A DNA stretch of 64,000 nt from Flavobacteriales bacterium. Lineage in GTDB: Bacteria > Bacteroidota > Bacteroidia > Flavobacteriales_D > JAUILH01. The translations under genes and the position numbers were made by a program. Shown piece by piece: positions 22,675 through 42,322 of this stretch. How positions within the stretch are numbered: position 1 is the stretch's first letter; the number at the start of each line of letters is the position of its first letter. Where the stretch lies: positions 174,106-238,105 of the forward strand of contig CAXRGQ010000006.1 in assembly GCA_964230215.1 (NCBI GenBank). The letters are read 5' to 3'. The notes under the pieces were generated by a model. It made no database searches, was not told the origin of the DNA, and saw only the letters and a program-made list of their open reading frames with translations.

Positions 22675-23733
22675 ATGAAACTTATTACCCTATCAACACT
22701 ATTACTATTCGTTGTAGCTACACAGGCCCAATATACACCTGAAGATCGTTTTACGGTTAAGCACACACTTGAAGACTTTGGTTTAAAAGGAAATGTGAAG
22801 TCATTTAAGGTGACTCATTATGCTATGAACTATGAAGGGAAGGAGGTTTTATCTGGTTTTCCGCCGAAAGCACACTACCACTTTAACGAGGATGGAAAAC
22901 TGACAAATATGACAGAAATCAATTCGGAAAACGGGGTTAATGCTACTATGACGCTGAAGTATAATGAAGCAGGTCAGTTATTGCATGTAGAATACGACAA
23001 GTCATACAGTGATTATGTAATCAACTTTAATTATGGGAATGATGGCGTACTAAACAGTATATCAAAGACTCAATATCGCACTTACTATGAAAAACAGTTC
23101 ATTTATAATGAGCTTGGAGATATTGAGCGTGTTAAATTCAAAGAAATGCCAATAAGTAAGCAAAATGGCAATGTTGTGGTTAATATCAACAGTACCATAG
23201 AAGAGAAATGGACGGAAACTTGGGTTTATAAGTACGATAAAGAAGGAAAAGTCATATCAATTGAGAAAAAATACCCTGAGCGAGACAATGATGACGACTT
23301 TAACGGTTATGGGGATAATCATGTGAGCTATTTCGAATATCACAAAAATGGGAACATAGCAAAAATGGAGAATAAGGTAGAGGATGAGCAGGAATGGTAC
23401 CCGAGGGTTAAGCAGACCTATAATAAAGATGGTAAGCAAGTTCATTATTACGAAGGAGACTCAATTACCTCACCTCAAATATTCAGCCATGACAAGTATT
23501 ATTATGACAAGGACGGTGAAATGATTGCATCATACAATCATTACACGGGAGATGGTGAGTTTGAGTACTTCAACAAATTCGAGCACACTAGGGACGAGCA
23601 AGGAAACTGGACTGAATGGAAGACCTTGACCAAGTCAACTGCGATTCACCGTAAGCTTGATGATAAGAAAGAGAAAATAGACTACAAGCTTAACAGTCGG
23701 GATGTGCGCGAAATTGAGTATTATGAGGAGTAG
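22675..23733 (+). CDS. secreted repeat protein (MORN/YwqK-like repeats)
   Basis: Signal peptide. Repeated 'Y(N/D)K(D/E)GK...' units throughout. Confidence 0.55.
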   Translation: MKLITLSTLLLFVVATQAQYTPEDRFTVKHTLEDFGLKGNVKSFKVTHYAMNYEGKEVLSGFPPKAHYHFNEDGKLTNMTEINSENGVNATMTLKYNEAGQLLHVEYDKSYSDYVINFNYGNDGVLNSISKTQYRTYYEKQFIYNELGDIERVKFKEMPISKQNGNVVVNINSTIEEKWTETWVYKYDKEGKVISIEKKYPERDNDDDFNGYGDNHVSYFEYHKNGNIAKMENKVEDEQEWYPRVKQTYNKDGKQVHYYEGDSITSPQIFSHDKYYYDKDGEMIASYNHYTGDGEFEYFNKFEHTRDEQGNWTEWKTLTKSTAIHRKLDDKKEKIDYKLNSRDVREIEYYEE

Positions 23734-27393: not shown

Positions 27394-27511
27394 AAGGTAA
27401 TGGGCTAAAATGTGGTTGCCCCAAGGCTTTATTTTGTATAAAAAAAATTAAATTTCTGCTACATACTGGCATAGAGACCTGAGGGTGTATGCAATTATGG
27501 TGTTGTTGGCA
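27394..27511 (-). repeat. attC-like site A (decayed terminal copy of the ~127-bp family)
   Basis: Aligns to sites B, C and D (GGGC..TAAAATG..TGCCCCAAGG, GAGACCTGAGGGTGTATGCAATTATGGTGTTGTTGGC). The right box GTTGGCA is at 27505-27511. The left AAC box is lost. It starts 10 nt after the stop of ORF 27522..27827. Confidence 0.5.
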
Positions 27512-27521
27512 ATAATTACCT

Positions 27522-27827
27522 TTATCTACGTCTTGTTTTATTTTGTCTGTTTTTCTCTCGAATTTTCTCTTTCCTCTCAGCATCAGCAGCTTCTTTTTTA
27601 TATTCCTTATGCATCCAGCTTATGATAAATATGCAAATGATAAAAGGACATAATGTTATAAAGAAACCCCAAAATCGGTTCCGAGTGTGCTGAGCACTTC
27701 CCCATTCATCGTATTGTTTCAAGTCTTTTCCCCATGGTGTAGAATAAAAACCTGAATAAATACAATATAGGTAGTTTATAATAAAGTTACCTGCCAATAA
27801 AAACAACCATATTGTCGAGGATTTCAT
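27522..27827 (-). CDS. cassette ORF: small membrane protein, 101 aa, with a basic tail
   Basis: Three hydrophobic helices. The ATG lies 6 nt from the box of site B and the stop lies 10 nt from site A. Confidence 0.6.
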   Translation of the reverse strand: MKSSTIWLFLLAGNFIINYLYCIYSGFYSTPWGKDLKQYDEWGSAQHTRNRFWGFFITLCPFIICIFIISWMHKEYKKEAADAERKEKIREKNRQNKTRRR

Positions 27828-27833
27828 AATTGT

Positions 27834-27960
27834 TGCTAACGGGGCAGGGTAAAACGCGTGTGCCCCAACGTTTAGTTTATCTAATATACGTATTATTGTT
27901 TTGGGTACTCATTATTCGTTTGGAGACGTGTGGGCATATGCGATTTACCCGTTGTTGTGG
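27834..27960 (-). repeat. attC-like site B (127 bp)
   Basis: Plus strand reads TGCTAAC-GGGGCAGGGTAAAACGCGTGTGCCCC...GGGCATATGCGATTTACCC-GTT-GTTGTGG. The arms form a ~19-25 bp imperfect stem with a 3/6-nt unpaired spacer next to the AAC/GTT boxes. Confidence 0.65.
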
Positions 27961-28229
27961 TGCGTTTTTATTTTTTCTTCGATTAATTTCTTCGCTATTA
28001 TTAGACAATGTTCACGACTTCCAATAACCCCAATCGTTTCGGTTTCAATTTTATAAAGTCTGTCCGCAATTTCTTTCTCTGTTTTATTGTGAATTAGTAA
28101 GGAGAAAATTTCTGGCACGTAACTTTGATACTCATCTCTGGGTGCAAAGTCATTCACTCCAATCGGGTCCCATTCGTTCCATAGGATTTCGTCAACAGAA
28201 TTATATAATTTTTTTTGCTCGCTCGTCAT
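27945..28229 (-). CDS. cassette ORF, 94 aa hypothetical (WDPIGV...DEY motif, immunity-protein-like)
   Basis: Overlaps the upstream ORF by 4 nt. Its stop codon lies inside site B (GGGTAAATCGC). Confidence 0.55.
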   Translation of the reverse strand: MTSEQKKLYNSVDEILWNEWDPIGVNDFAPRDEYQSYVPEIFSLLIHNKTEKEIADRLYKIETETIGVIGSREHCLIIAKKLIEEKIKTHHNNG

Positions 28230-28513
28230 TCTTTGTCTTCTTGCGATACAAATGGATATTCGGAAAAATAGACATCCATACCAATCATTCCCATTGTTTT
28301 CATTGATGCGGCGTTCAATACTCCACCGCCACCGTTTGCGTCTTTCCTTATGTCAAATCCAATGTCAGCTATATATTTACTTGGCTTTAATGTTTTCCCT
28401 TTATCCATCAGCCAAGTTTCAAGAGCATCAATTTGTGTAGGTAAATCCCATGCTTCATCACATAGCCATTCCAATTTTTCTCCTGAGTCTTCGATATAAA
28501 TATTTATTGGCAT
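28226..28513 (-). CDS. cassette ORF, 95 aa hypothetical
   Basis: The ATG lies 20 nt from the CCACAAC box of site C. Translationally coupled to the next ORF. Confidence 0.55.
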   Translation of the reverse strand: MPINIYIEDSGEKLEWLCDEAWDLPTQIDALETWLMDKGKTLKPSKYIADIGFDIRKDANGGGGVLNAASMKTMGMIGMDVYFSEYPFVSQEDKE

Positions 28514-28533
28514 TTCTCGGTTCTTTTAATGCA

Positions 28534-28660
28534 CCACAACGGGGCAGGGTAAAACGCGTGCCCCAAAACGTTTTGTTTATCTAAAAATACAAAATATAAT
28601 TTCAGCTACTAATTATACGTCTGAAGACGCGAGGGGTATGCGATTTACCCGTTGTTAGGC
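28534..28660 (-). repeat. attC-like site C (127 bp) with a canonical GTTAGGC core
   Basis: Reads CCACAAC-GGGGCAGGGTAAAACGCGTG-CCCC...GGGGTATGCGATTTACCC-GTT-GTTAGGC. It shares 23-nt and 20-nt identical arm segments with site B. Confidence 0.7.
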
Positions 28661-28841
28661 TTAGTTACATAAAAATCATTAAATTCATTTCTTTTGAAAA
28701 ATTATCGGATTACTACAAAAAATAAAAGGTAAAACAAGCGTTTGGCAAGCCATAGTAATTGCGTTTTTTATTGGATGCGCAATTTGGGCTTATTGGCAAG
28801 AAAGGGAATTAAAGGAAAATCATGTATATTGTATAGGGACG

Positions 28842-29087
28842 GTGATAAAAAAGTGGAGAATGGTGAGTGGTAGACAAGTGCGGGTTAAATTTTATTATCG
28901 TGGAAAGTGGCGAACCGCCTCCGAAAATCAGGGGAATCATAAATTAGAAATAGGGGATAGAGTTTATGTGAAAATTAACCCGGAAAATGAATACACCCGA
29001 ATAATGCATGAGTATATTGCTTGCGATAGCCTAGAAACGGGACAACAGCCAACAGAAGGTTGGAAAGAAATACCATGCTTAAAATAA
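28842..29087 (+). CDS. hypothetical protein (DUF3592-like: TM helix plus beta domain); start unresolved, possibly frameshifted
   Basis: The frame is open from 28698 and encodes a TM helix (WQAIVIAFFIGCAIWAYW), but it has no ATG, GTG or TTG before 28842. A TTG at 28694 opens a 12-codon frame that would join after a 1-nt shift in an A-run. Confidence 0.4.
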   Translation: MIKKWRMVSGRQVRVKFYYRGKWRTASENQGNHKLEIGDRVYVKINPENEYTRIMHEYIACDSLETGQQPTEGWKEIPCLK

Positions 29088-29089
29088 TA

Positions 29090-29578
29090 CTACCTTACGT
29101 TTATAGCTATAAGCCAGGAAATAAGACCTGACAAAAGAATTGTAGTAATCGCAAATGCTATAGGATACCTTGTTGCTAGGTTATCGTTGAGATTTAGATT
29201 ATTAATTTCTTTATCAATTTGTTCCCTAACTAGAGGTGCTATTTCTTTCTGAAATTTTAGCGCATCAAATTCAAGTTGCTGCTTTTCCTTGTTTTCTTTT
29301 AATTCTTGCTGTAGCTTTTTAACATGCAATAAGTAACCACCAAAATCAACTATGTCAATACCATGTTGAGTTATATAAATTTCGTTTTGATGTCTAGGTG
29401 TACCTTTTATTATTAATCGATCACTTATCATTTCTGTAATTAATGCATTTTTCTCAATGTCATTCATATTAATATCACACGCTTCAAAAACTTTGAGATA
29501 ATGCTTTGCGTCTGCACAGTCACGTAAGTAATTAAGTATTGCGTCTATATTTTTATGTTTTGAGCTATTCTCGGTCAT
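29090..29578 (-). CDS. cassette ORF, 162 aa, coiled-coil protein with a C-terminal TM anchor
   Basis: I moved the start to MTENSSKHK (ATG 29576-29578), 8 nt inside the GCCTAAC box. The track's 29665 start would read across the recombination-site-like sequence. Confidence 0.55.
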   Translation of the reverse strand: MTENSSKHKNIDAILNYLRDCADAKHYLKVFEACDINMNDIEKNALITEMISDRLIIKGTPRHQNEIYITQHGIDIVDFGGYLLHVKKLQQELKENKEKQQLEFDALKFQKEIAPLVREQIDKEINNLNLNDNLATRYPIAFAITTILLSGLISWLIAINVR

Positions 29579-29586
29579 AGAATTAA

Positions 29587-29636
29587 GCCTAACTACGGGA
29601 TAAACCCAATTAACAAATAAATCTACATATAAATCC
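29587..29636 (-). other. attI-like half-site 1 (R box, L box and direct repeats)
   Basis: GCCTAAC (complement of site C's GTTAGGC), then TAC, then GGGATAAACCC. The motif ATAAAYC occurs three times (29600, 29617, 29629). No partner arm is present. Confidence 0.5.
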
Positions 29637-29685
29637 ATCAACAAGCAAAAAAGAACTAATAGCATGATTTACAAATACATATGTA

Positions 29686-29872
29686 TTTACAAACGACTGT
29701 AAACGTCATTTAAATACTTATCTACCGACTAGTACTTTTCAACTCCCCCATCTTTGCACCGTCGATTGAAACAAAGCCGGCTTGTGACAAAAGACACCGT
29801 GCCTAATGTGCAGATAACTAATAACGAAAACATACATACACATTAGGAAATGTTAAACCTTAATTTTTTAAA
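29686..29872 (+). promoter_or_regulatory. conserved ssb leader/promoter region, copy 1
   Basis: Near-identical in both copies. It has a CATCTTTG box (TAnnTTTG-like), the palindrome AAGCCGGCTT (29773-29782), and a 9-bp hairpin CCTAATGTG (29802-29810) / CACATTAGG (29839-29847). Confidence 0.45.
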
Positions 29873-30205
29873 ATGAACAACTTAAGAAACAAAGTACAGT
29901 TAATCGGGAATGCGGGAATGGAACCTGAAATTAAAGATGTAAACGGAAGTAAATTGGCTAAACTATCCATTGCTACCAACGAAACATACACCAACAAATC
30001 AGGTGAACGTGTTACAGACACACAATGGCACAACATTGTTGCCTGGGGAAAGACAGCCGAGTTAATTGAACGTTTCGTTACAAAAGGTAAAGAAATAGCG
30101 ATTGAAGGCAAACTAAACACTCGCTCATACGAAGATCAAGATGGTAATAAACGTTATGTGACGGAGATTATCATGAATGATTTCTTGCTGTTGGGTGCTA
30201 AGTAA
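29873..30205 (+). CDS. ssb: single-stranded DNA-binding protein, short form (110 aa, no acidic C-terminal tip)
   Basis: OB-fold SSB pattern: NKVQLIGNAG..PE...LAKLSIATNE...GERVTDTQWHNIVAWGKTAELIERFVTKGKEIAIEGKLNTRSYEDQDG.KRYVTEI. Confidence 0.85.
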   Translation: MNNLRNKVQLIGNAGMEPEIKDVNGSKLAKLSIATNETYTNKSGERVTDTQWHNIVAWGKTAELIERFVTKGKEIAIEGKLNTRSYEDQDGNKRYVTEIIMNDFLLLGAK

Positions 30206-30238
30206 ATGGAGTAGCCCATATTTTCTCTCATAAACTTA

Positions 30239-30273
30239 AGTCCTGTTCTGAAATTTTCGAAGCAGGACTTTTA
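30239..30273 (+). terminator. rho-independent terminator of ssb copy 1
   Basis: AGTCCTGTTCTG...AGCAGGACT followed by TTTT. The stem is homologous to the copy-2 terminator. Confidence 0.7.
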
Positions 30274-30280
30274 TTGCATA

Positions 30281-30853
30281 TTAAAAGTCTTTTAAAACTA
30301 AGCCTTTGCCAGTGTAATCAACTAATAATTGCTTACCCTTCAATCCCATCCTCTCTAATTCTTCATCTTCTGGCGCAAAATGATGATTTATATTTAGGTA
30401 GATTTCGTTCAGTCCATCTGCATCAAAATCATGAACTACAAAAGCCGGTAAGTATTCTCCTATTTCATTTGAATGCTGTATTTCCTCTGGATAAGGGAAG
30501 TCCGTATAAATAATTGGGAACTCAATACGCTGAGCAACTGTGGACAAGCCGACTTCAAGGTGATAGTATGCATGAGCGCCACCATTACTGATAAAACATA
30601 TTGTGTCTTTTATACCATCCTCATCAAGATCCCACAAATCTGTATATTCATAATGCAAAAGGTCCACTGCCAAAGTCGAATCGTACACATAATGTGCGTA
30701 TTGTGAATTTGGGAGGTCTACAAACTGACTATCTTCAATTGAGTGTGCCTTTACAGTTGACGAATCTATACTTTCATTGCTTGCATGAACTTCTGGTTTT
30801 TTCTCAGAATTACACGCGATTGCAATGACTAGTATAGGGATATATTTCTTCAT
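30281..30853 (-). CDS. lipoprotein, hypothetical (D-x-D-x-DG calcium-binding-like motifs)
   Basis: Lipobox VIAIAC. Contains DLDEDGIKD and DFDADGLNE. Confidence 0.5.
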   Translation of the reverse strand: MKKYIPILVIAIACNSEKKPEVHASNESIDSSTVKAHSIEDSQFVDLPNSQYAHYVYDSTLAVDLLHYEYTDLWDLDEDGIKDTICFISNGGAHAYYHLEVGLSTVAQRIEFPIIYTDFPYPEEIQHSNEIGEYLPAFVVHDFDADGLNEIYLNINHHFAPEDEELERMGLKGKQLLVDYTGKGLVLKDF

Positions 30854-30915
30854 ACTAATGACTTTACAAATATATCATCTCATCAAATAAATATTGATAA
30901 GGTCGGCCTAGAAAC

Positions 30916-31332
30916 TCAATTTAGCCGTCTAAAGCCAATTGTCTGATTGGTTGTTTTAAGTAAGAAGTGGTCATGATCAACAAAGTTTATTTGACCAAAA
31001 ATAAACGTGTCTTTTTTAGCGCTTGACACCGAGAAAGTAGTCAAAGTGCTATCACGTATCATCCATTCGTAATAGTGTGAACTATCAATTTCAATAGGTA
31101 CTAAGTAGTTCTGCTCAAATATACCGTCCTTATGAAAGCTGAATACATAGCCATCCATTTCTGAATAATCAATTGATAAAAATGTAAATCCTTCTTTAGG
31201 GATGCCCTCAAAATTATTCTCAACAGAAACTAGATTCCAGCTACCCACAATATCGTTTGTTACGTTTTTCGTATCCTCCAGTGATGAACAGGCAGCCATC
31301 AAAATAATTGCTATGTAAATAAAGCTTTTCAT
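30916..31332 (-). CDS. lipoprotein, hypothetical (lipocalin-like size)
   Basis: I prefer the start at MKSFIYIAIILMAAC (lipobox). This removes the overlap with hipA. Confidence 0.5.
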   Translation of the reverse strand: MKSFIYIAIILMAACSSLEDTKNVTNDIVGSWNLVSVENNFEGIPKEGFTFLSIDYSEMDGYVFSFHKDGIFEQNYLVPIEIDSSHYYEWMIRDSTLTTFSVSSAKKDTFIFGQINFVDHDHFLLKTTNQTIGFRRLN

Positions 31333-31339
31333 ATCTGGA

Positions 31340-32653
31340 TTATTTAAATCTAGGAGCAATTAAGGTGTTTAAAATCAAATCCCTTAGTTCTTGTGACACA
31401 TTTGTCTTCGTGGCGTACTCTCTCCAGTTACACACCACTGATTTAATCTCTTCAATTATCTTTTCGCCCTTTTTTATGCTGTTATCTGAGGCAATTTTAA
31501 TTAAGTCTGAAGTATTAATGTCCTTGTGTTTCCCACAAATACTTAGCGTATGCTGACTTACCCAAACGTTTTTTGGATCGTACGAATAGCAGACATCATA
31601 GGCTGGCGCCAACTCCCATTTTCCATGTTGTTTCAACATGAATGAAAAGTTCTTGGTGTGGTCGTCATAATTAGTCGCCATCACATTAAACACCATTCTT
31701 CTGAACATCTGCTCGGCCTCTGGATAGGTCATTCTTAACATCCGCATAGTCTGAAATAGCTGCTCATAACTGTAGCCGTATAGGTTGTTGTAGTCGAAAT
31801 GTTGAATGCCGCAGAATGTCTGAATATGATGCTTATCATTATTCCCCTCCCTATCAAAACGTTTGGTCATAAAATGTGCCCTATCATTCTCCTCTAACAA
31901 TTTACTTTCCATCATTTCAATGCCACAGTCTCTAGCCATCAAGTAATAGGCATACTCTACTCTTCCGTAACCAGAACTAACACCGAATTGCGTATCACTT
32001 ACACCATCAAGTTTAATTAACCAGTGTTCGAATCCTTTGGGGACATTGCTCTGACCAGACCTTACTTCACCCGTTTTTTGATTATAAGCGATTACAGCTT
32101 TTGGCCTAGCACCGCCTGCAGAAGTACCAATAGTGAGTATCTCACGCATTGCCTTTTGCTCATCTTTATGCAGGTTGGTTTCGAACTTCTCTCTGTTCGA
32201 CAACATTTTGTGTGCTATGTCTACTAAGCTTTTAATTTCGATAGCAAACGTTCTTTCTTTAGGTTTTATCTGTGCAGGCTCAAATTCCAAAGCACCCATT
32301 CCCCTTGAGCCAATGAAACAAAGTTGTTCGACAGGGTTCATACTATTCGGTGCGCGACCTTCTTGTGCTAACCAGATATTTATCAATTGATTTCCATATT
32401 TATCTGGCAGTGCATCTGCCAATAAACCCGGAAGCCCTTTGAAAGTGGATGTCTCTTCCCCTTTCTGTTTTCTCAATTCCGGAAAACTGTATATGCGGTC
32501 TCCATTACTTATAGGCATTTTTAATGGAGATAGGTCAATGTCCTTTGCAAGAAACTTTTTATCAAATTGAAAACTGGCTAGCTGACGATTTTCGTCCCAG
32601 CGAGCGGCACCTACGAGTTGTCCCCAAATTTTTATTTCTACTACATCTACCAT
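31340..32653 (-). CDS. hipA: HipA-family serine/threonine kinase toxin (type II TA)
   Basis: 437 aa. N-terminal HipA-coupling region and a C-terminal kinase core with GGARPK and DDHTKNFSF. Confidence 0.85.
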   Translation of the reverse strand: MVDVVEIKIWGQLVGAARWDENRQLASFQFDKKFLAKDIDLSPLKMPISNGDRIYSFPELRKQKGEETSTFKGLPGLLADALPDKYGNQLINIWLAQEGRAPNSMNPVEQLCFIGSRGMGALEFEPAQIKPKERTFAIEIKSLVDIAHKMLSNREKFETNLHKDEQKAMREILTIGTSAGGARPKAVIAYNQKTGEVRSGQSNVPKGFEHWLIKLDGVSDTQFGVSSGYGRVEYAYYLMARDCGIEMMESKLLEENDRAHFMTKRFDREGNNDKHHIQTFCGIQHFDYNNLYGYSYEQLFQTMRMLRMTYPEAEQMFRRMVFNVMATNYDDHTKNFSFMLKQHGKWELAPAYDVCYSYDPKNVWVSQHTLSICGKHKDINTSDLIKIASDNSIKKGEKIIEEIKSVVCNWREYATKTNVSQELRDLILNTLIAPRFK

Positions 32654-32994
32654 TCGGATGCCTCATTAGATGAATCGCCTTTGCTGCTAGCTCTACTTCT
32701 TTTGTTTTTCTGAAGTTTGGCATATTCAATTGGACTTATTTCATCATTAACTTTAAAAGCGTCCATTATAAACAGTAGGTCTAACACTCTTAACACTTGA
32801 ATCAGACTCATCAAGTTCACCTTTTCACCACGCTCTAAAAGACTCAGTGTAGAACGGCTAATATTTGCAGCTTCAGCCACTTCATTTTGAGATTTGTTCT
32901 GATTTAAGCGGTGATGTTGGACAAATTTCCCTATGGTTTCAACGAGCGATTTATCACTCATCGAATACCAATCAATGTATGAATTATCATTCAT
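32647..32994 (-). CDS. XRE-family HTH antitoxin (HipB-like)
   Basis: Overlaps hipA by 8 nt. HTH segment KSQNEVAEAANISRSTLSLLERGE. Confidence 0.75.
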   Translation of the reverse strand: MNDNSYIDWYSMSDKSLVETIGKFVQHHRLNQNKSQNEVAEAANISRSTLSLLERGEKVNLMSLIQVLRVLDLLFIMDAFKVNDEISPIEYAKLQKNKRSRASSKGDSSNEASEW

Positions 32995-33013
32995 ATTACG
33001 CTTTTTATATTAT

Positions 33014-33023
33014 TAACGCGTTA
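33014..33023. promoter_or_regulatory. candidate operator palindrome upstream of the hipB-like gene
   Basis: Perfect 10-bp palindrome TAACGCGTTA, 20 nt upstream of the start codon. Confidence 0.3.
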
Positions 33024-33170
33024 TATATCATTCAAATATACACATAAGATTTCAGACACACAACACTTGATGAATGATTTATCACTCACTAACTTCAAAT
33101 TAAAAGCCTAGTGAATTGTTTTTCATTCAAAACAAAGACACATATATCTTGTTTGAACAAAAATATACAA

Positions 33171-33542
33171 CTACCTATGCTGATCAATCAGAATAGCATT
33201 GCCATCAGGGTCTTTAAGCACTATGCTCGCTGGTCCGTTAGTGCTTTCGTCTGCTCTGCTGTCCAGTACTATTCCTTGTGACTCAAGGTGCTTTTGAATA
33301 TCTCTTACATCCTCAAACGGGTCTACGTTTTGTGCACTCTGGTCCCAGCCTGGGTTAAAAGTGAGAATATTGCCTTCAAACATGCCTTGGAAAAGACCTA
33401 TAACGGTTTCTCCGTTTTTCATTATCAGGTAGTTTTGTTCCATGTTGCCTGCAAACATTTCGAATCCCAATTTCTCATAGAATTCCTTTGATGTTTGTAA
33501 GTCTTTTACGCTTAGACTGATTGAGTGTGCTCCCAGTTTCAT
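33171..33542 (-). CDS. VOC (glyoxalase/bleomycin-resistance) family protein
   Basis: 123 aa. [20 protein letters not shown] and DPDGNAILI are typical of the VOC fold. Confidence 0.75.
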
Positions 33543-33606
33543 GTTTTGTTAGTTTGATTTGATTGCTTTTTTAATATTAATCTTGCTTAATGATATTTGA
33601 CAAATT

Positions 33607-34260
33607 CTAATCCCGCACAAAAAATGTCTTAGAGATAATTTCTTGATAACTGTTATTCCTTTTACCATTTAAACGAAAAACGATAATATCATTATCACCT
33701 GGTAATACCAGATAACATGATTTAACTCTGTCAAGGCCAATGCATCCTTCACATGTTAGTGTTACCTCAGTGAATTCAGGATCATAAGCAGTAAAGATTT
33801 TATTTTCTTCGCTTCTAATGAGGGTGTCGCTTTCAGATTCGTTATAAATTCTATTAAGCGATGAATCAGGTGCAGCATTATAAATAAAATATCTGGTAGA
33901 GACTAACTGTCTATGTCCTGTATTTAGCGTGAATTGTAATTGATATGGTTTTTTGATTTCGGTCTTATCTGAAAGTAATTTAAACGGAAGTTCTATTTGT
34001 CCCAATTCCTCACTTGGAATTAAGTGTGTGCCTATACCATACACTGTCCCATATATCCCAACAAGATTTGCGTTAATCGTATACTGGGCAGTACTATCAA
34101 AATCTGCTGAGTCAATAGCATATTCAAATCCAACCTTAAATTTATCAGGTAATACTTCATCATTATTAACGGGCTGAGAAATTACCTCTAAGTATCCCTG
34201 TGCTTCACATGGTATCGCTAAAGCAAATAAGATGGAGCTGGTTATTATAAATCGAAACAT
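33607..34260 (-). CDS. secreted hypothetical protein, 217 aa
   Basis: Signal peptide (LFALAIPCEAQ). Confidence 0.5.
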   Translation of the reverse strand: MFRFIITSSILFALAIPCEAQGYLEVISQPVNNDEVLPDKFKVGFEYAIDSADFDSTAQYTINANLVGIYGTVYGIGTHLIPSEELGQIELPFKLLSDKTEIKKPYQLQFTLNTGHRQLVSTRYFIYNAAPDSSLNRIYNESESDTLIRSEENKIFTAYDPEFTEVTLTCEGCIGLDRVKSCYLVLPGDNDIIVFRLNGKRNNSYQEIISKTFFVRD

Positions 34261-34463
34261 TCAATTTTTATTTAATTTATTGGACTACAAAATACATTAT
34301 TCTAACGTCTATTTCCACTCTTATTAGACGCCATCTTCTTCTGTATTGTATCATTAGCGGTATACTGCCAATGCTCTTTCAATTTAAGTAATAATTCTCT
34401 GGCGTCATAATAATCACAGTAAGCGGCTAAGGGAAACTTTTTACAGGAAATTATATTCTGTGC

Positions 34464-35003
34464 TTAGAAACTTTGTGGCGCTTGAAGCTGTGACCTTATT
34501 ATTTGAACAAACTTATCATATTTCTCTGGTCCCAGTAGTTGCTTTGATATAATATCGAACAATTCATTATTTGCCAGATACAAGTATACATCATCACCAT
34601 TAATTGAATATGATCTTATGGCTGTCCATTTGGTTTCCGAATTATGATTTTCAGACACGTATTTAATTGTATTTGAGTCAAAGTAAAATGTATAAGCCAT
34701 ATCCATGGATTTATTTCGCTGGTCTAATTCTTTTAAAGATCTGTCCCTTACTAATTGAAAGCGAATGAGAAATACTAACAGATACAATACTGAAATGCCA
34801 ATACTAACACAACCTATTATCCATAGTATGCGAATCTTTAGAGCTAATCCTGATGCAATCAAAGCACAACACACTAAAGCCCCAAGCCAAACGGGCAACT
34901 TCTTTAATTCACGTTGCTGTTCATACTTGAAATACTTCTCAAATATCTGCCTAGTTCTTTCTTTATCATATATTATCCTTACTTCCTCCAAGTCTAAAAT
35001 CAT
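34464..35003 (-). CDS. YcxB-like membrane protein
   Basis: Two central TM helices followed by a C-terminal beta-rich domain. Confidence 0.45.
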   Translation of the reverse strand: MILDLEEVRIIYDKERTRQIFEKYFKYEQQRELKKLPVWLGALVCCALIASGLALKIRILWIIGCVSIGISVLYLLVFLIRFQLVRDRSLKELDQRNKSMDMAYTFYFDSNTIKYVSENHNSETKWTAIRSYSINGDDVYLYLANNELFDIISKQLLGPEKYDKFVQIIRSQLQAPQSF

Positions 35004-35085
35004 TTAAGTAAAGTGGTGCACATACAGGTATTTTATACGTTTTATGTTTAATAATTTAATATTTAGCACGTATCATATTCCTAAA

Positions 35086-35640
35086 CTATTGAATCAATCT
35101 TAAATCAGAAATATTAAGACTTAATACTACCAAACCTATTTTATTGAATTCTATTTGGGTCTCAGTAGATATTTTGGTGATTACCTTATTTAGGTTTTGT
35201 AAAATCTCTTCAGATTGCATTTTACTCAAAACCTCCCGTGACCTTCCGATAGAAATATCTTCAACAAGGTGAGTTATATCTGCACGTGAACAGCCAAGCA
35301 ACCTTTCCACAGCATTCATGGTATATTTGGGATCAGTCGAAATGGCTGCTTTAATTGTTGTTGCCATCCTAACACGTTTGTTATCTTCTGTGATATACAT
35401 AGCTGAGTTGATATCCACATGATATGGGGTTAAATCTAGAAAATCATATTCTTGAATGATAGGCCAAACAAAAGCTCTCCCCCCGTGAACAAGCTTATAT
35501 AACTCTCCTGTTTCAATCTTCCCGTATATAACCATTATTTTATCTGGAGGACACTTAATTAACCGTTTGAATAATACAACTATCCATAGAACTAGCATTA
35601 ATCCAAATGCCCCAAGAAAGATAAGAAGTGAGTCGTCCAT
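35086..35640 (-). CDS. SPFH/band-7 (flotillin N-terminal-like) domain membrane protein, short form
   Basis: N-terminal TM helix, then IKCPPDKIMVIYGK...GGRAFVWPIIQEYDFLDLTP. Only ~184 aa, lacking the flotillin coiled-coil. Confidence 0.55.
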   Translation of the reverse strand: MDDSLLIFLGAFGLMLVLWIVVLFKRLIKCPPDKIMVIYGKIETGELYKLVHGGRAFVWPIIQEYDFLDLTPYHVDINSAMYITEDNKRVRMATTIKAAISTDPKYTMNAVERLLGCSRADITHLVEDISIGRSREVLSKMQSEEILQNLNKVITKISTETQIEFNKIGLVVLSLNISDLRLIQ

Positions 35641-35691
35641 TGTTATTGTTTTAGGTAAGAGAGTTTGGTTTTCGTGATGTAAATCTTATCC

Positions 35692-36225
35692 TTAACGCCT
35701 TTTCCTTTTAGAAATCTTTTTAGGTTTATATTCAACTATTTCAAATCCGAGTTTATCACTAAGCTCCTTGATTTTACTTTTGGCGGCAGATAATGAATCA
35801 GCTTGTTGTATTACAAACTTGCTTAAATGATTGTCATTAAGTAAAACGATTGTAAACACCTGGTCACTAAACTGGCTTGGCAATGCTCCTCTCATGTTCA
35901 TGTTATAAGCAACATTGGTACTGGTTATTGCCAAATACTTGTATGGGTTTAAGTCTCTCCATTTACCCCATTTTAACCCAAGTGATGAAGAGAATTTGCG
36001 CAATTTCTTTTTCTCTAAGTCAATTTCAACGCCTTCATATGAGCTCAGAATAAATGCACCCGCTATAAAAGCTACAATACCTGCGATTGGTCTTGCAGAA
36101 GGACTAACCGCTATTTCTACTTTATCAGGTGTGGAGATTAATACAATACCAAATATTATAAGCAAAACAGCAACTACAATGAACATCACTGGGAAAGTCA
36201 AGCCGAAATTTTCTTTTATTCTCAT
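35692..36225 (-). CDS. membrane protein, hypothetical
   Basis: I prefer the start at MRIKENFG. Two TM helices, a soluble domain and a basic tail. Confidence 0.45.
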   Translation of the reverse strand: MRIKENFGLTFPVMFIVVAVLLIIFGIVLISTPDKVEIAVSPSARPIAGIVAFIAGAFILSSYEGVEIDLEKKKLRKFSSSLGLKWGKWRDLNPYKYLAITSTNVAYNMNMRGALPSQFSDQVFTIVLLNDNHLSKFVIQQADSLSAAKSKIKELSDKLGFEIVEYKPKKISKRKRR

Positions 36226-36281
36226 AATGATTTTCAAACAAGCCAAGTGGCATTGATTAAGAATGAATTATATCCGTTTTT

Positions 36282-36566: not shown

Positions 36567-36575
36567 ATTAAACAA

Positions 36576-36708
36576 TACTAACGGGGCAGGATATAGCGGA
36601 TGCCCCACAGGTTTAGTTTATCTAATATACGGATTATTATTTCGGGTAATTATTGTCTGTTTGGAGACCTAAGGGCACATGCAGTTTAATCATTGCTGCA
36701 TGTTAGTC
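36576..36708 (-). repeat. attC-like site D (133 bp, same family as B and C)
   Basis: TACTAAC-GGGGCAGGATATAGCGGATGCCCC. The central GTTTAGTTTATCTAATATAC...GTTTGGAGAC is shared with B. The site ends ...GGGCACATGCAGTTTAATCATTGCTGCAT-GTTAGTC. The hepT stop codon TAA sits inside the GACTAAC box. Confidence 0.65.
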
Positions 36709-37044
36709 ATCTAGAAACTTCTTTACTTCAGGTAATAACTTAGGCAGGTCTTTGGTTACAATGGCCCAAATTATTGCATCCGAAATTGTGTCATAACCAT
36801 GTATTATTCTATTTCTTGTATCCACAATTTTTCGTGCGTTTTCAATTGGGAAATCACTTTGGAGTTTTAGAATTCGATTTACTGCTTCTCCTATAATTTC
36901 AAGACTTCTCTCAATTGCTCGCTTAGTCTTTAAATCATTCTGGAATTCAAAATAATTCCTTTTTTCTGGCAGGAATGAGTTAATCTCTAGTATGGCGTCA
37001 TGAATATCAATTAACCAAACTTTAATTTCTTTCTCCATACACAA
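36703..37044 (-). CDS. hepT: HepT (DUF86) ribonuclease toxin
   Basis: R-x4-H-x-Y motif (RNRIIHGY). 113 aa. Overlaps mntA. Confidence 0.8.
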   Translation of the reverse strand: MCMEKEIKVWLIDIHDAILEINSFLPEKRNYFEFQNDLKTKRAIERSLEIIGEAVNRILKLQSDFPIENARKIVDTRNRIIHGYDTISDAIIWAIVTKDLPKLLPEVKKFLDD

Positions 37045-37330
37045 GAACTTTTGATTTATCTATTTCAGATTTTAAAAGCTGATTTCTGATAGCTCCATCC
37101 TCTAATAGATCAATCTTTCTATTAAGAAGTTTTTCCAGTTGGAATTTCAGATTAAAGTATTTTTCCGAATAAGAAATGGGATCACTATCCTCAATGGATA
37201 CAATAAGATCAATGTCGCTTTCGTCATTAAATCTATCAGTTGTTACTGAACCAAAAGCGAATAATGTAGACACCCTATTACTAGAGCATAACTCCTTAAT
37301 TTGGGCAATATATTTATCCAAATATGCCAT
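37022..37330 (-). CDS. mntA: MntA nucleotidyltransferase antitoxin
   Basis: GSVTTDRFNDESDIDLIV (GS...DxD). I moved the start to MAYLDKYIAQ. The track's extension to 37447 reads through site E. Confidence 0.75.
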   Translation of the reverse strand: MAYLDKYIAQIKELCSSNRVSTLFAFGSVTTDRFNDESDIDLIVSIEDSDPISYSEKYFNLKFQLEKLLNRKIDLLEDGAIRNQLLKSEIDKSKVLVYGERN

Positions 37331-37388
37331 CCTCATCCAAAGATACGAATAGTAAGGTAAAGTAGTTTCAGTCCTATTGGTTAATGTG

Positions 37389-37455
37389 ATGCAACGGTCC
37401 GTGTATGTTGTCGTAGCATCCCAAAGGGTGCTATGCAATATACACATTGTTGTGT
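37389..37455 (-). repeat. attC-like site E (67-bp short hairpin type)
   Basis: ATGCAAC-GGTCC-GTGTAT-GT-TG-TCG-TAGCA [loop TCCCAAAGGG] TGCTA-TG-CA-AT-ATACAC-ATT-GTTGTGT. It is an imperfect palindrome with bulges and AAC/GTT ends. Confidence 0.6.
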
Positions 37456-37584
37456 TTTCGTGCTTTATTTAATTCTTTTTCAGCGGTGGTAAAGCCATAC
37501 TCTTTTACAATTTTTGGTTATAGCGTTGGCTGGTGCGAATTGCAAATGTGTATGGTTTTAAGCGTTGGGTTGATTTCTGAGTGT

Positions 37585-37610
37585 TACTTATAGTCTTTGA
37601 TTTATAGTCC
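37585..37610 (+). promoter_or_regulatory. tandem C-boxes (controller-protein operator)
   Basis: TACTTATAGTC-TTTGA-TTTATAGTC matches the GACTnnnAGTC x2 architecture of R-M controller operators. It lies ~23 nt upstream of the C-gene start. Confidence 0.6.
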
Positions 37611-37632
37611 ACATTTCCTCAAATTTGCAACT

Positions 37633-37869
37633 GTGGAAATAAAATCAAAAATAGGAGCTCGGATCAAAGAATTGAGGGATGATAAGCAAATGTCTCAAAA
37701 AGATTTAGCTTATGCTTCTGATTTAGACCGCAGTTACATTGCAAGTGTTGAAAATGGTCAAAGAAATATATCAATTGTCAATATTGAAAAAATTGCTGTT
37801 GCACTTGGAGTTACATTAAAAGATTTTTTTAGGAATGACAAATTTGATAACGATACAACAAGCAGTTGA
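37633..37869 (+). CDS. R-M controller (C) protein, XRE-family HTH
   Basis: HTH segment MSQKDLAYASDLDRSYIASVENGQRNIS. I prefer GTG 37633 (78 aa, close to the C-boxes). Overlaps the next gene by 35 nt. Confidence 0.7.
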   Translation: MEIKSKIGARIKELRDDKQMSQKDLAYASDLDRSYIASVENGQRNISIVNIEKIAVALGVTLKDFFRNDKFDNDTTSS

Positions 37870-38644
37870 TGGATTTAAAGAACTTATAGAAACTTCAATT
37901 GTTGAAGGTGGAATTAAAGCAAAAGAAGCAATTATTAGGTCATCACGACCAATTAACTTTATTCACGAGGCTGTCAAAGCCGATTTTATTAGAAAAAGAA
38001 TTTCTCCTGATAGAATCCATCCACCTCTTGGAGAATCAAAACCTGAACTTAAATTAGCTGGTTTTATTAAACAGAAACATCAAGATGTTTGCGTTGCACC
38101 TGAAGGATATGTTCCAGAATCTGAAACAATGACTGAAGGGATTTTAAGAGAAGCAACTGATTATTATGGTAAAGATTATACAGAACGTACAATTTCTGTA
38201 AACATTAGAAGTCAAATGAGTTCTCTTGCTAAAAACTTTGACACACTTTATGAAAGAACTATTGCCGAAGCTCAAAACCTGCACGTTAGATGTCAGAAAA
38301 TGGTGCTTGGAGAAGTTTATATGATTCCTGTAAAAGAATATGATGCGTCTGTAATGGATGAAAAAAGAGTTGAATTTATTGACCGAATAGGCGCAGTTGA
38401 GAAATATATCAAATCATTCCAAGCAATTAACGGAAGACCTAATCATGAACGAGAAGATTACAAGTATGAACGAGTTTGCTTGCTGCTTGTAGACTTTCAA
38501 CAAGCACCTGCAAAGATTTATAGTACAAATCAGGAACTTTATGATGATGGACTTTTAGATGAAGCTTCCGATGCCAGTATCGAAGAGCTTTCTTGGGAAA
38601 CATTTACGGATTCTATTCTAAATTCATATAAGAATAGATTCTAA
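37835..38644 (+). CDS. putative restriction endonuclease subunit 1 (269 aa)
   Basis: Lies between the C gene and the methyltransferase. Paralog of the next ORF. Shared blocks: AGFIK.K.QD, GKDYTE, VN(I/V)RSQMSS, RC.KMVLGE, EDYKYER.CL.L.DF. Confidence 0.55.
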   Translation: MTNLITIQQAVDGFKELIETSIVEGGIKAKEAIIRSSRPINFIHEAVKADFIRKRISPDRIHPPLGESKPELKLAGFIKQKHQDVCVAPEGYVPESETMTEGILREATDYYGKDYTERTISVNIRSQMSSLAKNFDTLYERTIAEAQNLHVRCQKMVLGEVYMIPVKEYDASVMDEKRVEFIDRIGAVEKYIKSFQAINGRPNHEREDYKYERVCLLLVDFQQAPAKIYSTNQELYDDGLLDEASDASIEELSWETFTDSILNSYKNRF

Positions 38645-39597
38645 TGGCTAAAAGCAAAATTTTAAGTAAAAGAAAATCTGCTCAACTCGAGAGAGTTAAG
38701 GCTACCGCCCATCATAATATCGTTAATGCAACACCACAAAATATATTGCAGGTTGCTTGCGATAATTTCAAATTTGTATTTGAACAAGCAGTTAGAATTG
38801 GAGGTGTTAAAGGAAAACAAAGTTTAACGACTTCAAGCAAGCACATTAACTTGTTTCATGAGGTGGTGAAATCAGAATTAATACGTAATGGAGTTAGAGC
38901 AGATTTGGTTTTTCCATCACAATATAATTCTACTGGTGAAATAAATTTTGCAGGATTTATTAAAGCAAAAAAGCAAGATATTTCGGCAGTTCCATCAGCT
39001 TTCATCAATAATGAAACCCCTGAAACCATAACAGTTGGTATGATGACAGGGGAAACAGACCCATTTGGGAAAGATTATACTGAAAATTCTCTTGTTGTAA
39101 ATGTGCGAAGTCAAATGAGTAGTATTGGGAAGAACAACGATACTATTGTGGAAAGAGCTTTTGCTGAAACTCTTAATCTTCATATGAGATGTCCGAAAAT
39201 GGTATTAGGTGAATTTTTTATTCTTCCAATAACTGGTTTTAACATGGATGAAGTGAAAAAACATAACCCAGCTTATGAAAGCATAATTACTACAAAAGTT
39301 AATAGTAGAAGTAAAACAACCGCTGAATCAATTGAGAAAACGATTAATACCTATGCTTCTATAAACAACAGAAACATTAGTAATGGCGAAGATTATAAAT
39401 ACGAGAGATTGTGTTTAATCTTGGCAGATTTTAGTCAAAGCCCAGTAAAAATATATAGAAATGATGCTGATTTAATTTCGGATAACTTGTTACCACCAAA
39501 CACTACAGCAACTTTAAATGGTTTAGGTTATGATAGTTTTATTTCAGATTTACTGGCTATTTATTCGACAAGGTTTGGTACAGGTAAGTTTAGTTGA
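38644..39597 (+). CDS. putative restriction endonuclease subunit 2 (317 aa, paralog)
   Basis: Its ATG overlaps the subunit-1 stop. Roughly 35-40% identity to subunit 1 by eye. Confidence 0.55.
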   Translation: MAKSKILSKRKSAQLERVKATAHHNIVNATPQNILQVACDNFKFVFEQAVRIGGVKGKQSLTTSSKHINLFHEVVKSELIRNGVRADLVFPSQYNSTGEINFAGFIKAKKQDISAVPSAFINNETPETITVGMMTGETDPFGKDYTENSLVVNVRSQMSSIGKNNDTIVERAFAETLNLHMRCPKMVLGEFFILPITGFNMDEVKKHNPAYESIITTKVNSRSKTTAESIEKTINTYASINNRNISNGEDYKYERLCLILADFSQSPVKIYRNDADLISDNLLPPNTTATLNGLGYDSFISDLLAIYSTRFGTGKFS

Positions 39598-41438
39598 TAT
39601 TTTTCAACTAAAAATTCGTCAATCTCTATTTTGTCATTAAGACTTTTTAGTAGCTCAATTTCATTTTGAGTGAAATTTGGAATACTAAACTTTTCAATGA
39701 AGTTCTTTTGATAGCAAGGGAAACCGCCTTGAATAGAAACACTCGTGTTACTTACATAATAGTCCATTACAATAGAGTTCAATATTTTTTGAACAACCAA
39801 AATATTTTCTTCTTTTGACATTGGATGAGTTACATCATCAAATAACATTGCCTTATTTGAATGATCTCTATCAAAATAAATTCCGTAACCGTTTGTATAA
39901 TAAGCATCTTCCTCTTGCACAAATAAAAATCTTGGGTGTTTACTAAATGTTGGATTCAATAATTTTTTACCAAATCTTGTAATTCCTTGTGTTCTTCCCC
40001 AGGCATAAAATGGAGTAAATATTTTTTTTCCTTTTCCTCTTCCTTCTAATTTCTCCTTTTCAGAAAGAAGGTATTCGTAGCATTTCGGATATATTATTTT
40101 GAATTCATCCTCCAAAATTGGAACTGCATTTTTCGAGTCTGTTTGATAAGGAGTAATAATTCTTAAAGTGTTGTTTTCAATATCTTTTTGATTTTTAAAT
40201 TGAGATATTTTGTAAACTGGTTTTGTGATTTCTTTTTCTATTAAAAATGTTCCGTTTTCTGTGCTTTTAGTTAGATAACCATTTTTTTGGTTTGCAGAAT
40301 CTATAAAAAAGACTTCATCTTTTAAGGTTGCAATTCCAACAGCAATATTGAATAATTGTTTTATTGGAGTTCCAATATTTTCAATGATTTTGATATTTTC
40401 TTGTTCTTGGGTTTTAAGTAAACGCCATTTATTTACATTGAGGTTTTCTAGATAGTTTGGCGAACCATTTGCAGATATTAAAAAGTTTGCACAAGTCTGT
40501 TCATCTTTGATTTTATCGAATAGAATAGAATCGTTTTTCTTCTTGTCCAAGAATGTAATTGCGGTATAAGTTTGAGCGTCAAAAACCTTTTTATGCCTAA
40601 AATCTACAATTCGTGTAACGCATTTATTTTGCAGAAAATATTGACGAAGCGATAAACCTGCCAGTGATGTAAAGTAATTGTTTGGCGTTATATAGCCTAG
40701 CTTTCCTTCTTTTTCTAAAAGTTTATGCCCCAATTCAAAAAAAGCAAAATATAAATTGAAAGTTCCGTTTTCAATACTTTTCCAATTGTTTATTAAATAA
40801 TGCCTGTTTTCATCACTTAAATCTTGAAACTTGACATATGGTGGATTCCCAACAATAATTTCAAATTTAGTTGACCAATCAGCTTTTAAGCTATCTTGAT
40901 TGAAGATATTAAAGTCAGATTCTTCTATTATCTCATTTTTTAGAAGTCCATAGAGTGATAAAATTATTTTTGAGCGTTTTACATTGTAGTCCAATATATC
41001 AGATCCATAAATATTTTCTCGGATAGTTGCCTTGATACTTTTATTAAAAGTCTTTTGGTAATATTCAGCCAAGCCAATTAAAAATGCCCCACAACCACAG
41101 CTTGGGTCTAAGCATTTGTCATTTTCTTTTGGTGATACTTCATTGATAATAAAATCAACAACGTATGTTGGTGTAAAAAATGCTCCATTAACTTTTCTGT
41201 CGTTTTTAGGAATTAAAAGTTCAAGATAATTCTCTAATAGTTTTAAATCCTTAATCTCAAGAGTTGAAACAAGTAAGTAGATTTCAGACTCTGGTTTAAA
41301 GTCCATTAATATTTCCGAAATTATTGGACTTTTTGTTGAAGCTAAATCATTGTTTTGAAGAAAAGAATAAATGAGATGTTTCTCAACAAGGTTAATCTCG
41401 TGAGAGTTAAGTAATTCATTTATTACACTTTTTTTCAT
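39561..41438 (-). CDS. N6-adenine DNA methyltransferase (Eco57I/TaqI-like gamma class), 625 aa
   Basis: Motif I LDPSCGCGAFL, motif IV VGNPPYV, and a long C-terminal target-recognition region. Convergent with the nuclease genes. Confidence 0.8.
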   Translation of the reverse strand: MKKSVINELLNSHEINLVEKHLIYSFLQNNDLASTKSPIISEILMDFKPESEIYLLVSTLEIKDLKLLENYLELLIPKNDRKVNGAFFTPTYVVDFIINEVSPKENDKCLDPSCGCGAFLIGLAEYYQKTFNKSIKATIRENIYGSDILDYNVKRSKIILSLYGLLKNEIIEESDFNIFNQDSLKADWSTKFEIIVGNPPYVKFQDLSDENRHYLINNWKSIENGTFNLYFAFFELGHKLLEKEGKLGYITPNNYFTSLAGLSLRQYFLQNKCVTRIVDFRHKKVFDAQTYTAITFLDKKKNDSILFDKIKDEQTCANFLISANGSPNYLENLNVNKWRLLKTQEQENIKIIENIGTPIKQLFNIAVGIATLKDEVFFIDSANQKNGYLTKSTENGTFLIEKEITKPVYKISQFKNQKDIENNTLRIITPYQTDSKNAVPILEDEFKIIYPKCYEYLLSEKEKLEGRGKGKKIFTPFYAWGRTQGITRFGKKLLNPTFSKHPRFLFVQEEDAYYTNGYGIYFDRDHSNKAMLFDDVTHPMSKEENILVVQKILNSIVMDYYVSNTSVSIQGGFPCYQKNFIEKFSIPNFTQNEIELLKSLNDKIEIDEFLVEKYQLNLPVPNLVE

Positions 41439-41601
41439 TCTTCTTTCTGTTGACTATAAGTAACAAAATTATGGTTTTTATCCGAGCTATCCAAATTGTA
41501 GAGTTGGGAAAATTTTAGCTCTTTTGGTTTTTTCAGCATTGGGAAAGATCGTGGGCAAAAACCAAATGTGCTAAATGTGCGGCTGGATTTTTTTGCATGA
41601 A

Positions 41602-41651
41602 ACACAACTACTGGGATAAACCCAATTACCACATAAATCTAATCAAAATCC
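41602..41651 (-). other. attI-like half-site 2
   Basis: ACACAAC (complement of site E's GTTGTGT), then TACT, then GGGATAAACCC. ATAAACC is at 41616, ATAAATC at 41633 and CAAAATC at 41644. The first ~33 nt are ~90% identical to half-site 1. Confidence 0.5.
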
Positions 41652-41700
41652 TATCAAGACACAAAATTCATTAAAAATCTATCTTTCAATAATATATCCA

Positions 41701-42221: not shown

Positions 42222-42286
42222 TTAGCCCAAACTGTTAATACTTTGTTGATATTCAGCACAGTAATAAATAACAATTCTTTAATTCA

Positions 42287-42322
42287 AGTCCTGTTCTGTA
42301 TTATCAGAGCAGGACTTTTTTT
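42287..42322 (+). terminator. rho-independent terminator of ssb copy 2
   Basis: 12-bp stem AGTCCTGTTCTG / CAGAGCAGGACT followed by TTTTTTT. Confidence 0.8.

Follow-up and report, generated by a model that had tools for sequence, protein, structure and literature searches.

The DNA analysed here, a stretch of 64 kb that we call the window, comes from an uncultured Flavobacteriales bacterium. Its SulP homologues place this host near Crocinitomix. Between roughly 23.7 and 37.4 kb the minus strand carries nearly every ORF, among them HipBA, MNT/HepT, a glyoxalase and many small unknowns. Most of this gene run contains no recognisable site, and the window as a whole holds three intact and two decayed sites (Table 1). 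The cargo of the window, which comprises HipBA, MNT/HepT, a restriction-modification system and small unknown ORFs in almost uniform orientation, is typical for chromosomal integrons. An Rfam search of 22-44 kb returned no match at E <= 1.

Table 1. Coordinates of the cassettes, sites and junction blocks in the window.
Feature	Position	Strand	Remarks
Cassette AB: ORF of 101 aa (27522-27827), degenerate attC A	27396..27839	-	Flanks 12/14
AttC-like site B, 119 nt	27838..27956	+	R1 28.7 bits, E 6.5e-5
Cassette BC: two ORFs, 28226-28513 (95 aa) and 27945-28229 (94 aa), attC B	27840..28539	-	Flanks 10/10
AttC-like site C, 119 nt	28538..28656	+	R1 32.9 bits, E 5.3e-6
Complete cassette CD: TT, 5' leader, ORFs, attC and G	28540..29592	-	Bounded by G|TT
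R'' box and extension of the cassette's own attC	28654..28666	-	AACTAAGCCTAAC on minus strand
Small convergent ORF	28860..29087	+	75 aa (MAG call), or 81 aa from GTG 28842
Cassette ORF, 162 aa	29090..29578	-	Start 29578; C-terminal hydrophobic anchor
R' box and extension	29581..29593	-	GTTAGGCTTAATT on minus strand; fits consensus G|TT-N7-AT
X1: conserved 280-nt non-coding stretch, ssb and terminator	29594..30282	+	Abuts J1
Orphan attI-like motif, TATTTG-N-ATATAAC-GC-G|TT	33015..33038	-	23 nt upstream of hipBA
MNT/HepT toxin-antitoxin cassette, degenerate attC E	36582..37394	-	
AttC-like site F, 59 nt, short form	37393..37451	+	R1 42 bits, E 2.5e-8
Type II restriction-modification cassette, 4.2 kb	37395..41607	-	From junction J2; PADLOC, Pfam
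X2: duplicate of X1	41609-42329		Abuts J2

The sites share one architecture. Read on the ORF-sense strand, each consists of an R'' box (AC-N7-AAC), 3 nt, an L'' stem, a variable centre, an L' stem, 5-6 nt and an R' box (G|TT-N7-AT). Site lengths range from 44 to 154 nt with a mode of 120-130, and all sites in an array have the same orientation. The R stem has 13 bp, in which only GTTR is conserved in sequence, and an asymmetric 6/3-nt internal loop separates it from the L stems. The latter have no single-base bulges and show two conserved G.T positions instead. A covariance model of this architecture (R1), built from 28 sites that all came from organisms other than that of the window, contained compensatory changes in 12 of its 14 consensus pairs. 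Searched against the window, R1 gave exactly three matches, F, C and B, all on the plus strand, and the next hit had an E-value of 0.62. It also recovered the sites of the related loci L028, L051, L003 and L143. The canonical aadA1 attC, a single site whose sequence we confirmed in 1962 plasmids, had no R1 match.

In predicted folds the bottom strand was more stable than the top strand in 62 of 65 sites. Stem positions without Watson-Crick pairs pointed the same way, with 227 G.T pairs on the bottom strand and 54 on the top strand, although part of this asymmetry could come from mutation bias. The better-folding bottom strand is the plus strand in the window and thus antisense to the ORFs. DNA fold z-scores were -3.5 (plus) and -1.9 (minus) for site C and -4.1 and -1.6 for site B, while site F forms a near-perfect site-spanning hairpin on the plus strand and none on the minus strand. 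Two traits of attC sites were present, namely a structure-conserved imperfect palindrome of the form R''(..AAC)/L''...L'/R'(GTT..) and an R'' box complementary to the first bases of its own cassette. A third, extrahelical L-box bases that direct strand choice, was absent.

An earlier sequence-only reading of this DNA had noticed complementary flanks around three cassettes, and all three were reproduced. Positions 28654-28666 (GTTAGGCTTAGTT) match the reverse complement of 29581-29593 (GTTAGGCTTAATT) at 12 of 13 bases. The flanks of cassette BC (27954-27963 and 28531-28540) match at 10/10, and those of cassette AB (GTTGGCAATAATTA, 27505-27518, against 27827-27840) at 12/14. The shuffle control proposed with that reading was less kind to it: unanchored inverted repeats of at least 12/13 with a spacing of 300-1500 nt numbered 136 in the window and 90-103 in shuffled sequence. 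Taken alone this control would refute the claim, because such repeats are common in shuffles too. What sets the flanks apart is their register. Each of them has its first base at the GTT/AAC that closes a conserved element of ~119 nt, and the conserved ends of this element occur twice each against 0.00-0.04 expected.

The same register separates true from false partners. In 15 cassettes from five loci, the nine bases past GTT matched the cognate partner in 7.5/9 positions on average (minimum 6), and non-cognate pairs reached a mean of 3.5/9 (maximum 7, n=210). This difference bears out the proposal that flank complementarity is the mark of exchange at G|TT. The lone mismatch in the 13-mer falls at position 11, which is A.C on the top strand (T.G on the bottom strand) in 33 of 56 consecutive site pairs, so that it is a family trait. 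Among the same pairs, stem positions 4-10 and 12-13 were Watson-Crick in 57-71 %, and positions 15-16 in only 12-20 %.

We consider it likely that 28654-29593 is the body of one mobile gene cassette, with minus-strand sense, in an integron-type array. That span had been taken for the cassette itself. A cassette is indeed present, but the span covers only the body between two boxes; since the mobile unit carries its attC at the 3' end, the cassette is 28540-29592. On the minus strand its bounds are G|TT at 29593|29592 and 28540|28539, following a boundary rule taken from L051, where ORF-less cassette copies are each bounded by G|TT. The G at 29593 is part of the upstream junction J1 and not of cassette CD. 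The integron core GTTAGGC/GCCTAAC that had been read at the flanks was partly retained: cassette CD fits GTTRRRY, but the family conserves only GTTR.

The boundary also bears on the gene call. The longer frame of the 162-aa ORF (29090..29665) had been proposed to start at 29578, and we agree, as the ATG there lies 15 nt past G|TT and the corresponding distances in neighbouring cassettes are 13, 27 and 23 nt. The 29 extra amino acids of the frame from 29665 would cross J1 and enter sequence with a conserved counterpart at the second copy of ssb. Neither the 162-aa ORF nor the convergent 75/81-aa ORF had a match in Pfam or PADLOC, and the same searches returned nothing for the other small cassette proteins.

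Two other cassettes of the window have a decayed site. AttC A (27396-27507) aligns to B and C, but its R' end lacks GTT and its stem is decayed. AttC E (36580-36697) has lost the AAC of its R'' box to AGC. The MNT gene of this cassette probably starts at 37336. The first cassette at J2 encodes a complete type II restriction-modification system with a C protein, two REase-like ORFs and a methyltransferase. Its flanks are again complementary, with GTTGTGTTT from 41608 downward facing AAACACAAC at the R'' box of site F.

A cassette that moves should turn up in other surroundings, and one such case was seen. On the 1.36-kb contig L003 the 95/94-aa cassette BC follows another cassette, of 246 aa, whose own flanks match at 10/10. 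The proteins of cassettes CD and AB were found only in the arrangement seen here; their look-ups gave no other context, and locus L139 is identical to the window. Relatives retrieved through the SulP gene comprised a member of the same species (L147) with the same order and an 86 % relative without synteny. Within the lineage of the window, altered context is limited to the one contig, L003.

Both window arrays adjoin a block of ~690 bp, X1 or X2, whose two copies are 93-96 % identical. Their junction, GGTTTATCCC-GTA-G|TT, resembles the attI end CGTTTATAAC-CA-G|TT of L028 and L051. The orphan attI-like motif upstream of hipBA was the single match in the window to a gapped attI motif; none of 100 shuffles had one, and it fits the attI consensus of the relatives. 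With a fixed-register attI weight matrix the window scored 5.8 at best, less than the 11 reached in shuffled sequence. No tyrosine recombinase or remnant of one was detected in the 64 kb (motif regex; best tblastn E-value 0.075), and no integrase remnant was found beside the orphan motif. The absence of an integrase makes the window arrays CALIN-like and suggests that they are either served in trans or fossil.

Integrase-linked arrays were found in other genomes. A scan with a 19-nt pattern, using one genome per species, yielded 47 stretches that were nearly all chance matches, and L028, from a Bacteroidia MAG, was the sole real relative. It has three cassettes and two sites, one of which belongs to a different sequence family with the same architecture. 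Its array ends beside a 292-aa tyrosine recombinase that is co-oriented with the ORFs. The same layout occurs in L051, the closest homologue of L028, and in L054, a 49 % relative. In both, the first cassette begins directly past the integrase stop at ...TATAACCA|GTT. A metagenome scan added at least 553 relatives, and 80 loci were kept.

These loci define an attI. Among the 73 with enough downstream DNA, 49 contained the core ATATAAC-NN-G|TT (TATAACNNGTT) less than 700 nt past the integrase stop, at a median distance of 33 nt, and the core occurred three times in 612 kb of upstream sequence. A TAnnTTTG box inside this attI could be a promoter, judging by its likeness to the Bacteroidetes -7 consensus. 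Arrays start 10-335 nt (median 33) past the stop codon of the co-oriented recombinase. AttC-like matches on the same strand downstream of the integrase numbered 67 per 137 kb, roughly tenfold the 0.03-0.06 per kb found elsewhere. The integrase gene of L028, L051, L054 and the metagenome loci runs in the direction of its cassettes, and not away from them as in the classical integron. An attI beside the integrase, with the first cassette starting from G|TT, is present in these relatives; in the window, junctions J1 and J2 and the orphan motif at 33015-33038 are its only counterparts. Many contigs, including that of a Psychroserpens mesophilus isolate, stop 20-300 nt past the integrase gene, and variable arrays would cause such breaks.

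Besides the changed neighbour in L003, two comparisons locate the exchange point. The Psychroserpens mesophilus isolate (L142) and a metagenome contig (L143) have an identical integrase, are 99.6 % identical up to ...ATAACCAGTT, and are unrelated from right after the attI GTT onward. L051 contains four copies of a 135-nt cassette without an ORF. Every copy begins at G|TT, behind attI or a site that differs from copy to copy, and closes with its own site plus G. The sequence-only reading had proposed integron-type movement by recombination at G|TT, and these other genomes uphold it, but the polarity had been assigned to the wrong strand. The GTT at plus-strand position 28654, cited in that reading, is the complement of the R'' box. 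On the plus strand the crossover G|TT appears as its reverse complement AA|C, at 29592|29593, 28539|28540 and 27839|27840. Flank symmetry alone cannot show which GTT is cut, and it would also allow the plus strand to be the top strand. The position of the integrase and attI, the orientation of the ORFs and the L051 boundaries rule this out. Judged from these sequence comparisons, the minus strand, which is also the sense strand of the ORFs, serves as the functional top strand. The L051 repeats, the point where L142 and L143 diverge and the new neighbour in L003 place the exchange at the R' G|TT of that strand, and in the relatives they indicate that cassettes exchange exactly at GTT.

The recombinase linked to these arrays combines features of two families. 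Its top NCBIfam match is TIGR02249 (integron integrase) at 211.6 bits, below the cut-off of 265, followed by XerA at 211.2 bits, just below the cut-off of 220. It shares a C-terminal SPLD/SPLS tail with VchIntIA. Residues 179-246 of VchIntIA have only 13-22 counterparts in the recombinases of L028 and Tenacibaculum salmonis (P0063), and the additional domain that integron integrases carry around patch III is absent. The stretch is missing from the 292-aa form and from the 395-aa Tenacibaculum form alike, and the alignment to XerA is contiguous in both.

This raises the question of whether the arrays are instead an Xer/dif-type module system, in which the recombinase would be the sole chromosome-dimer resolvase of its host and the cassettes would resemble IMEX or pdif modules. 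The enzyme aligns with archaeal XerA end to end and without a gap (136-144 bits), its XerA score of 211 bits nearly reaches the cut-off, and its gene adjoins its site, as in XerS/difSL and XerH/difH, where a single resolvase is encoded beside a dif-like site. CTX phage, for its part, uses a folded single-strand mimic of dif. We nevertheless regard this explanation as unlikely. The sites are hairpins of 44-154 nt and not 28-bp duplexes of two 11-bp arms and a 6-bp spacer, and they line up in long tandem arrays of uniform orientation, unlike pdif modules, whose sites alternate. Moreover, the window has arrays without such a recombinase gene, and the top match to TIGR02249 and the tail in common with VchIntIA point away from a resolvase.

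The arrays might also be an ordinary CALIN on which a classical IntI with the additional domain acts from a gene in another part of the genome, in which case the Xer-like recombinase of the relatives would be incidental. The AAC/GTT boxes, the R/L stem layout and the bottom-strand preference are attC-like, the window has no local integrase and classical CALINs are common. This explanation seems very unlikely to us. In 49 of 73 loci the conserved attI, with G|TT at its end, follows the gene for a recombinase without I2, and the arrays begin there. The identical integrase and attI of L142 and L143 lead into different first cassettes, and no classical IntI was present in any fetched locus. In addition, R1 misses the aadA1 attC, albeit a single site, and the L stems lack single-base bulges of the kind that IntI reads.

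It is hardly credible that the ~119-nt elements are immobile intergenic repeats (REP/MITE-like or terminators) with flank complementarity by chance, for although the unanchored 12/13 repeats (136 against about 97 in shuffles), the mere three to five copies in the window and the lack of an Rfam family agree with this, the separation of cognate from non-cognate pairs, a structured strand that is antisense to the ORFs and thus wrong for terminators, and the linkage of the sites to an integrase and attI with GTT exchange in relatives do not.

The reading that we prefer is that the window array is a variant of the integron type, apparently integron-like in layout and function although some of the classical tests came out negative. 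Membership in the classical integron family is not established, because the window has no integrase and the array-linked recombinase found elsewhere has no IntI-specific domain. Under this reading exchange would take place inside GTT and leave the site at the 3' end of its cassette. The bases after GTT at the 5' end of a cassette would then be the former partner of the R'' box of its own attC. Such a transfer of the partner to the 5' end would explain why the ends of a cassette body are complementary and the two boxes of one site are not. The substrate is likely the folded bottom strand, here the plus strand, in which R'' and R' are predicted to form a 13-bp stem with the conserved T.G, followed by the asymmetric 6/3-nt loop and a long L stem. 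The enzyme is likely a tyrosine recombinase related to Xer and IntI that lacks the IntI insertion. We infer that catalysis is by this Xer-like recombinase through single-strand chemistry on the bottom strand; the window arrays themselves may be active or fossil. It is through other taxa that the recombinase would be connected to the arrays of the window.

Whether these cassettes belong to a second, undescribed integron lineage that is widespread in Bacteroidota and uses an Xer-like integrase without I2 is, in our judgement, evenly balanced. We encountered it in isolates of Flavobacteriales such as Psychroserpens and Tenacibaculum, and metagenomes contributed at least 553 stretches. This lineage would have lost the I2 insertion, which is considered indispensable for reading folded attC, or would never have acquired it. 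The hairpins might be read through the asymmetric internal loop and the conserved G.T pairs instead of extrahelical bases. The system could represent a living 'proto-integron' or a convergent reinvention.

The arrays have much in common with classical integrons such as class 1 and the Vibrio superintegron. Both consist of tandem promoter-poor cassettes in which an ORF is joined to an imperfect hairpin site. These sites have R and L stems, a better-folding bottom strand and AAC...GTT boxes, and G|TT is where exchange takes place. Toxin-antitoxin and defence cargo and an attI beside the integrase gene are likewise common to both. They differ in the recombinase, which lacks any counterpart of the ~45-residue IntI insertion (VchIntIA 179-246), and in gene order, since the integrase here is upstream of and co-oriented with the array and the classical one is divergent. 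The sites differ as well. Classical attC sites have extrahelical single bases, where these have conserved G.T wobbles and an R stem of 13 bp; R and L are separated by spacers of 3 and 5-6 nt here and of 5 and 6 nt in the aadA1 attC. The 'inverted' integrons of Treponema and other Spirochaetes share the gene order, with intI transcribed towards attI and the cassettes. Unlike the arrays here, they have integrases with the additional domain of IntI and attC sites of the canonical kind.

Among Xer-dependent elements, pdif modules and IMEX have 28-bp duplex dif-like sites in alternating orientation and rely on the housekeeping XerC/D. The pdif modules of Acinetobacter plasmids and IMEX such as CTX phage resemble the present system in that their Xer-type recombinase lacks the IntI insertion and their modules carry toxin-antitoxin or resistance genes, but they have neither long hairpin sites nor ordered arrays behind a dedicated integrase. 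Elements of this kind are treated in PMC9771954 and PMC9455709. The term CALIN denotes attC sites that are clustered without an integron integrase (Cury 2016; Néron 2022, PMC9024848). The window has this form, as two or more attC-like sites and their cassettes stand there with no integrase close by. CALINs are defined by matches to the attC model of IntegronFinder, however, and the window sites belong to another sequence and structure class, detected by R1. Archaeal integrons (Ghaly 2022, PMC9668308) were likewise found by sequence analysis outside the usual host range and have attI directly downstream of intI. They keep the IntI-specific domain, which the recombinase linked to the arrays here lacks, and their attC sites were found by the standard model.

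The literature treats the IntI-specific domain as defining and necessary for integron integrases. The IntegronFinder survey lists for Bacteroidetes proper In0 elements and a complete integron only in Salinibacter (PMC9024848), and IntegronFinder 2.0 found no integron in a Tenacibaculum genome (PMC10013915). We found no description of such arrays in the searchable literature, a scope that excludes subscription journals.

The working definition of an integron consists of the IntI insertion and a single attC model, and surveys that rely on the two find next to no integrons in Bacteroidetes. The cassette reading corrects gene starts (29578 and probably 37336) and explains assembly breaks behind integrase genes. 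If an Xer-like enzyme lacking that insertion does run arrays of cassettes with folded sites, current integron finders miss a whole branch, and the step from Xer to integron integrase would become open to study, be it in an intermediate that occurs naturally or in a system that arose by convergence. Annotation would then also reach a large pool of accessory genes in marine Flavobacteriales, made up of toxin-antitoxin systems, restriction-modification systems and small proteins without an assigned family.

The second cassette array of the window is bracketed by direct repeats. A block of about 690 bp, consisting of 280 nt of non-coding sequence, an ssb gene and a terminator, occurs in two copies of 93–96% identity, and each copy abuts an array junction (J1 or J2, both at G|TT). 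This repeat around the array may stem from a duplication, or homologous recombination may have brought in a foreign array. At J1, the inverted repeat of the adjoining cassette CD extends outward to 17 matches in 19 positions. The plus strand of this junction reads AAC-TAC-GGGATAAACCC, which, judged by its sequence, looks like the R''-L'' half of an oppositely oriented site.

Coordinates of features in the window
Feature	Position	Strand
352-aa ORF	22675-23733	+
Inverted repeat of cassette CD, arms	28648-28666, 29581-29599	
ssb block, copy at J1	29594-30282	
Second array	30281-41607	
Orphan attI-like motif	33015-33038	-
MNT nucleotidyltransferase gene, as annotated	37022-37447	-
Restriction-modification cassette	37395-41607	
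C control protein gene	37597-37869	
ssb block, copy at J2	41609-42329	

A complete type II restriction-modification system forms one 4.2-kb cassette, whose ends are set by J2 and the 59-nt attC-like site F. Besides the control protein, it encodes a methyltransferase of 625 aa, along with two ORFs that resemble REases. In the annotation the MNT gene starts at 37447, within site F. A start at the in-frame ATG at 37336, which follows G|TT by 59 nt, is likelier and agrees with where the Pfam domain begins. The 352-aa ORF, which lies on the opposite strand where the run of minus-strand genes reaches its distal end, had no Pfam match.

An orphan motif resembling attI, the integrase-adjacent site at which the first cassette begins in related loci, lies 23 nt upstream of hipB (TATTTG-AATG-ATATATAAC-GC-GTT). 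The window has no second motif of this kind, and 0 of 100 shuffles contained one; no integrase gene or remnant was found beside it. The attI consensus of related loci (L062–L137, L028, L051 and L054) includes TAtaTTTG about 17–20 nt before G|TT. This box agrees with the Bacteroidetes -7 promoter consensus, TAnnTTTG, and could be a cassette promoter built into attI.

Among these loci, L051 carries a single array (9418-15007) in which sites of a short (44-nt) and a long form alternate with four copies of a 135-nt ORF-less cassette that is nearly all attC. Ten long contigs (L064, L070, L078, L089, L097, L101, L117, L120, L122 and L142), including that of a Psychroserpens mesophilus isolate (L142), end about 50–440 nt past the integrase stop codon. 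Ends so close behind integrase genes point to assemblies breaking systematically where arrays vary between strains.
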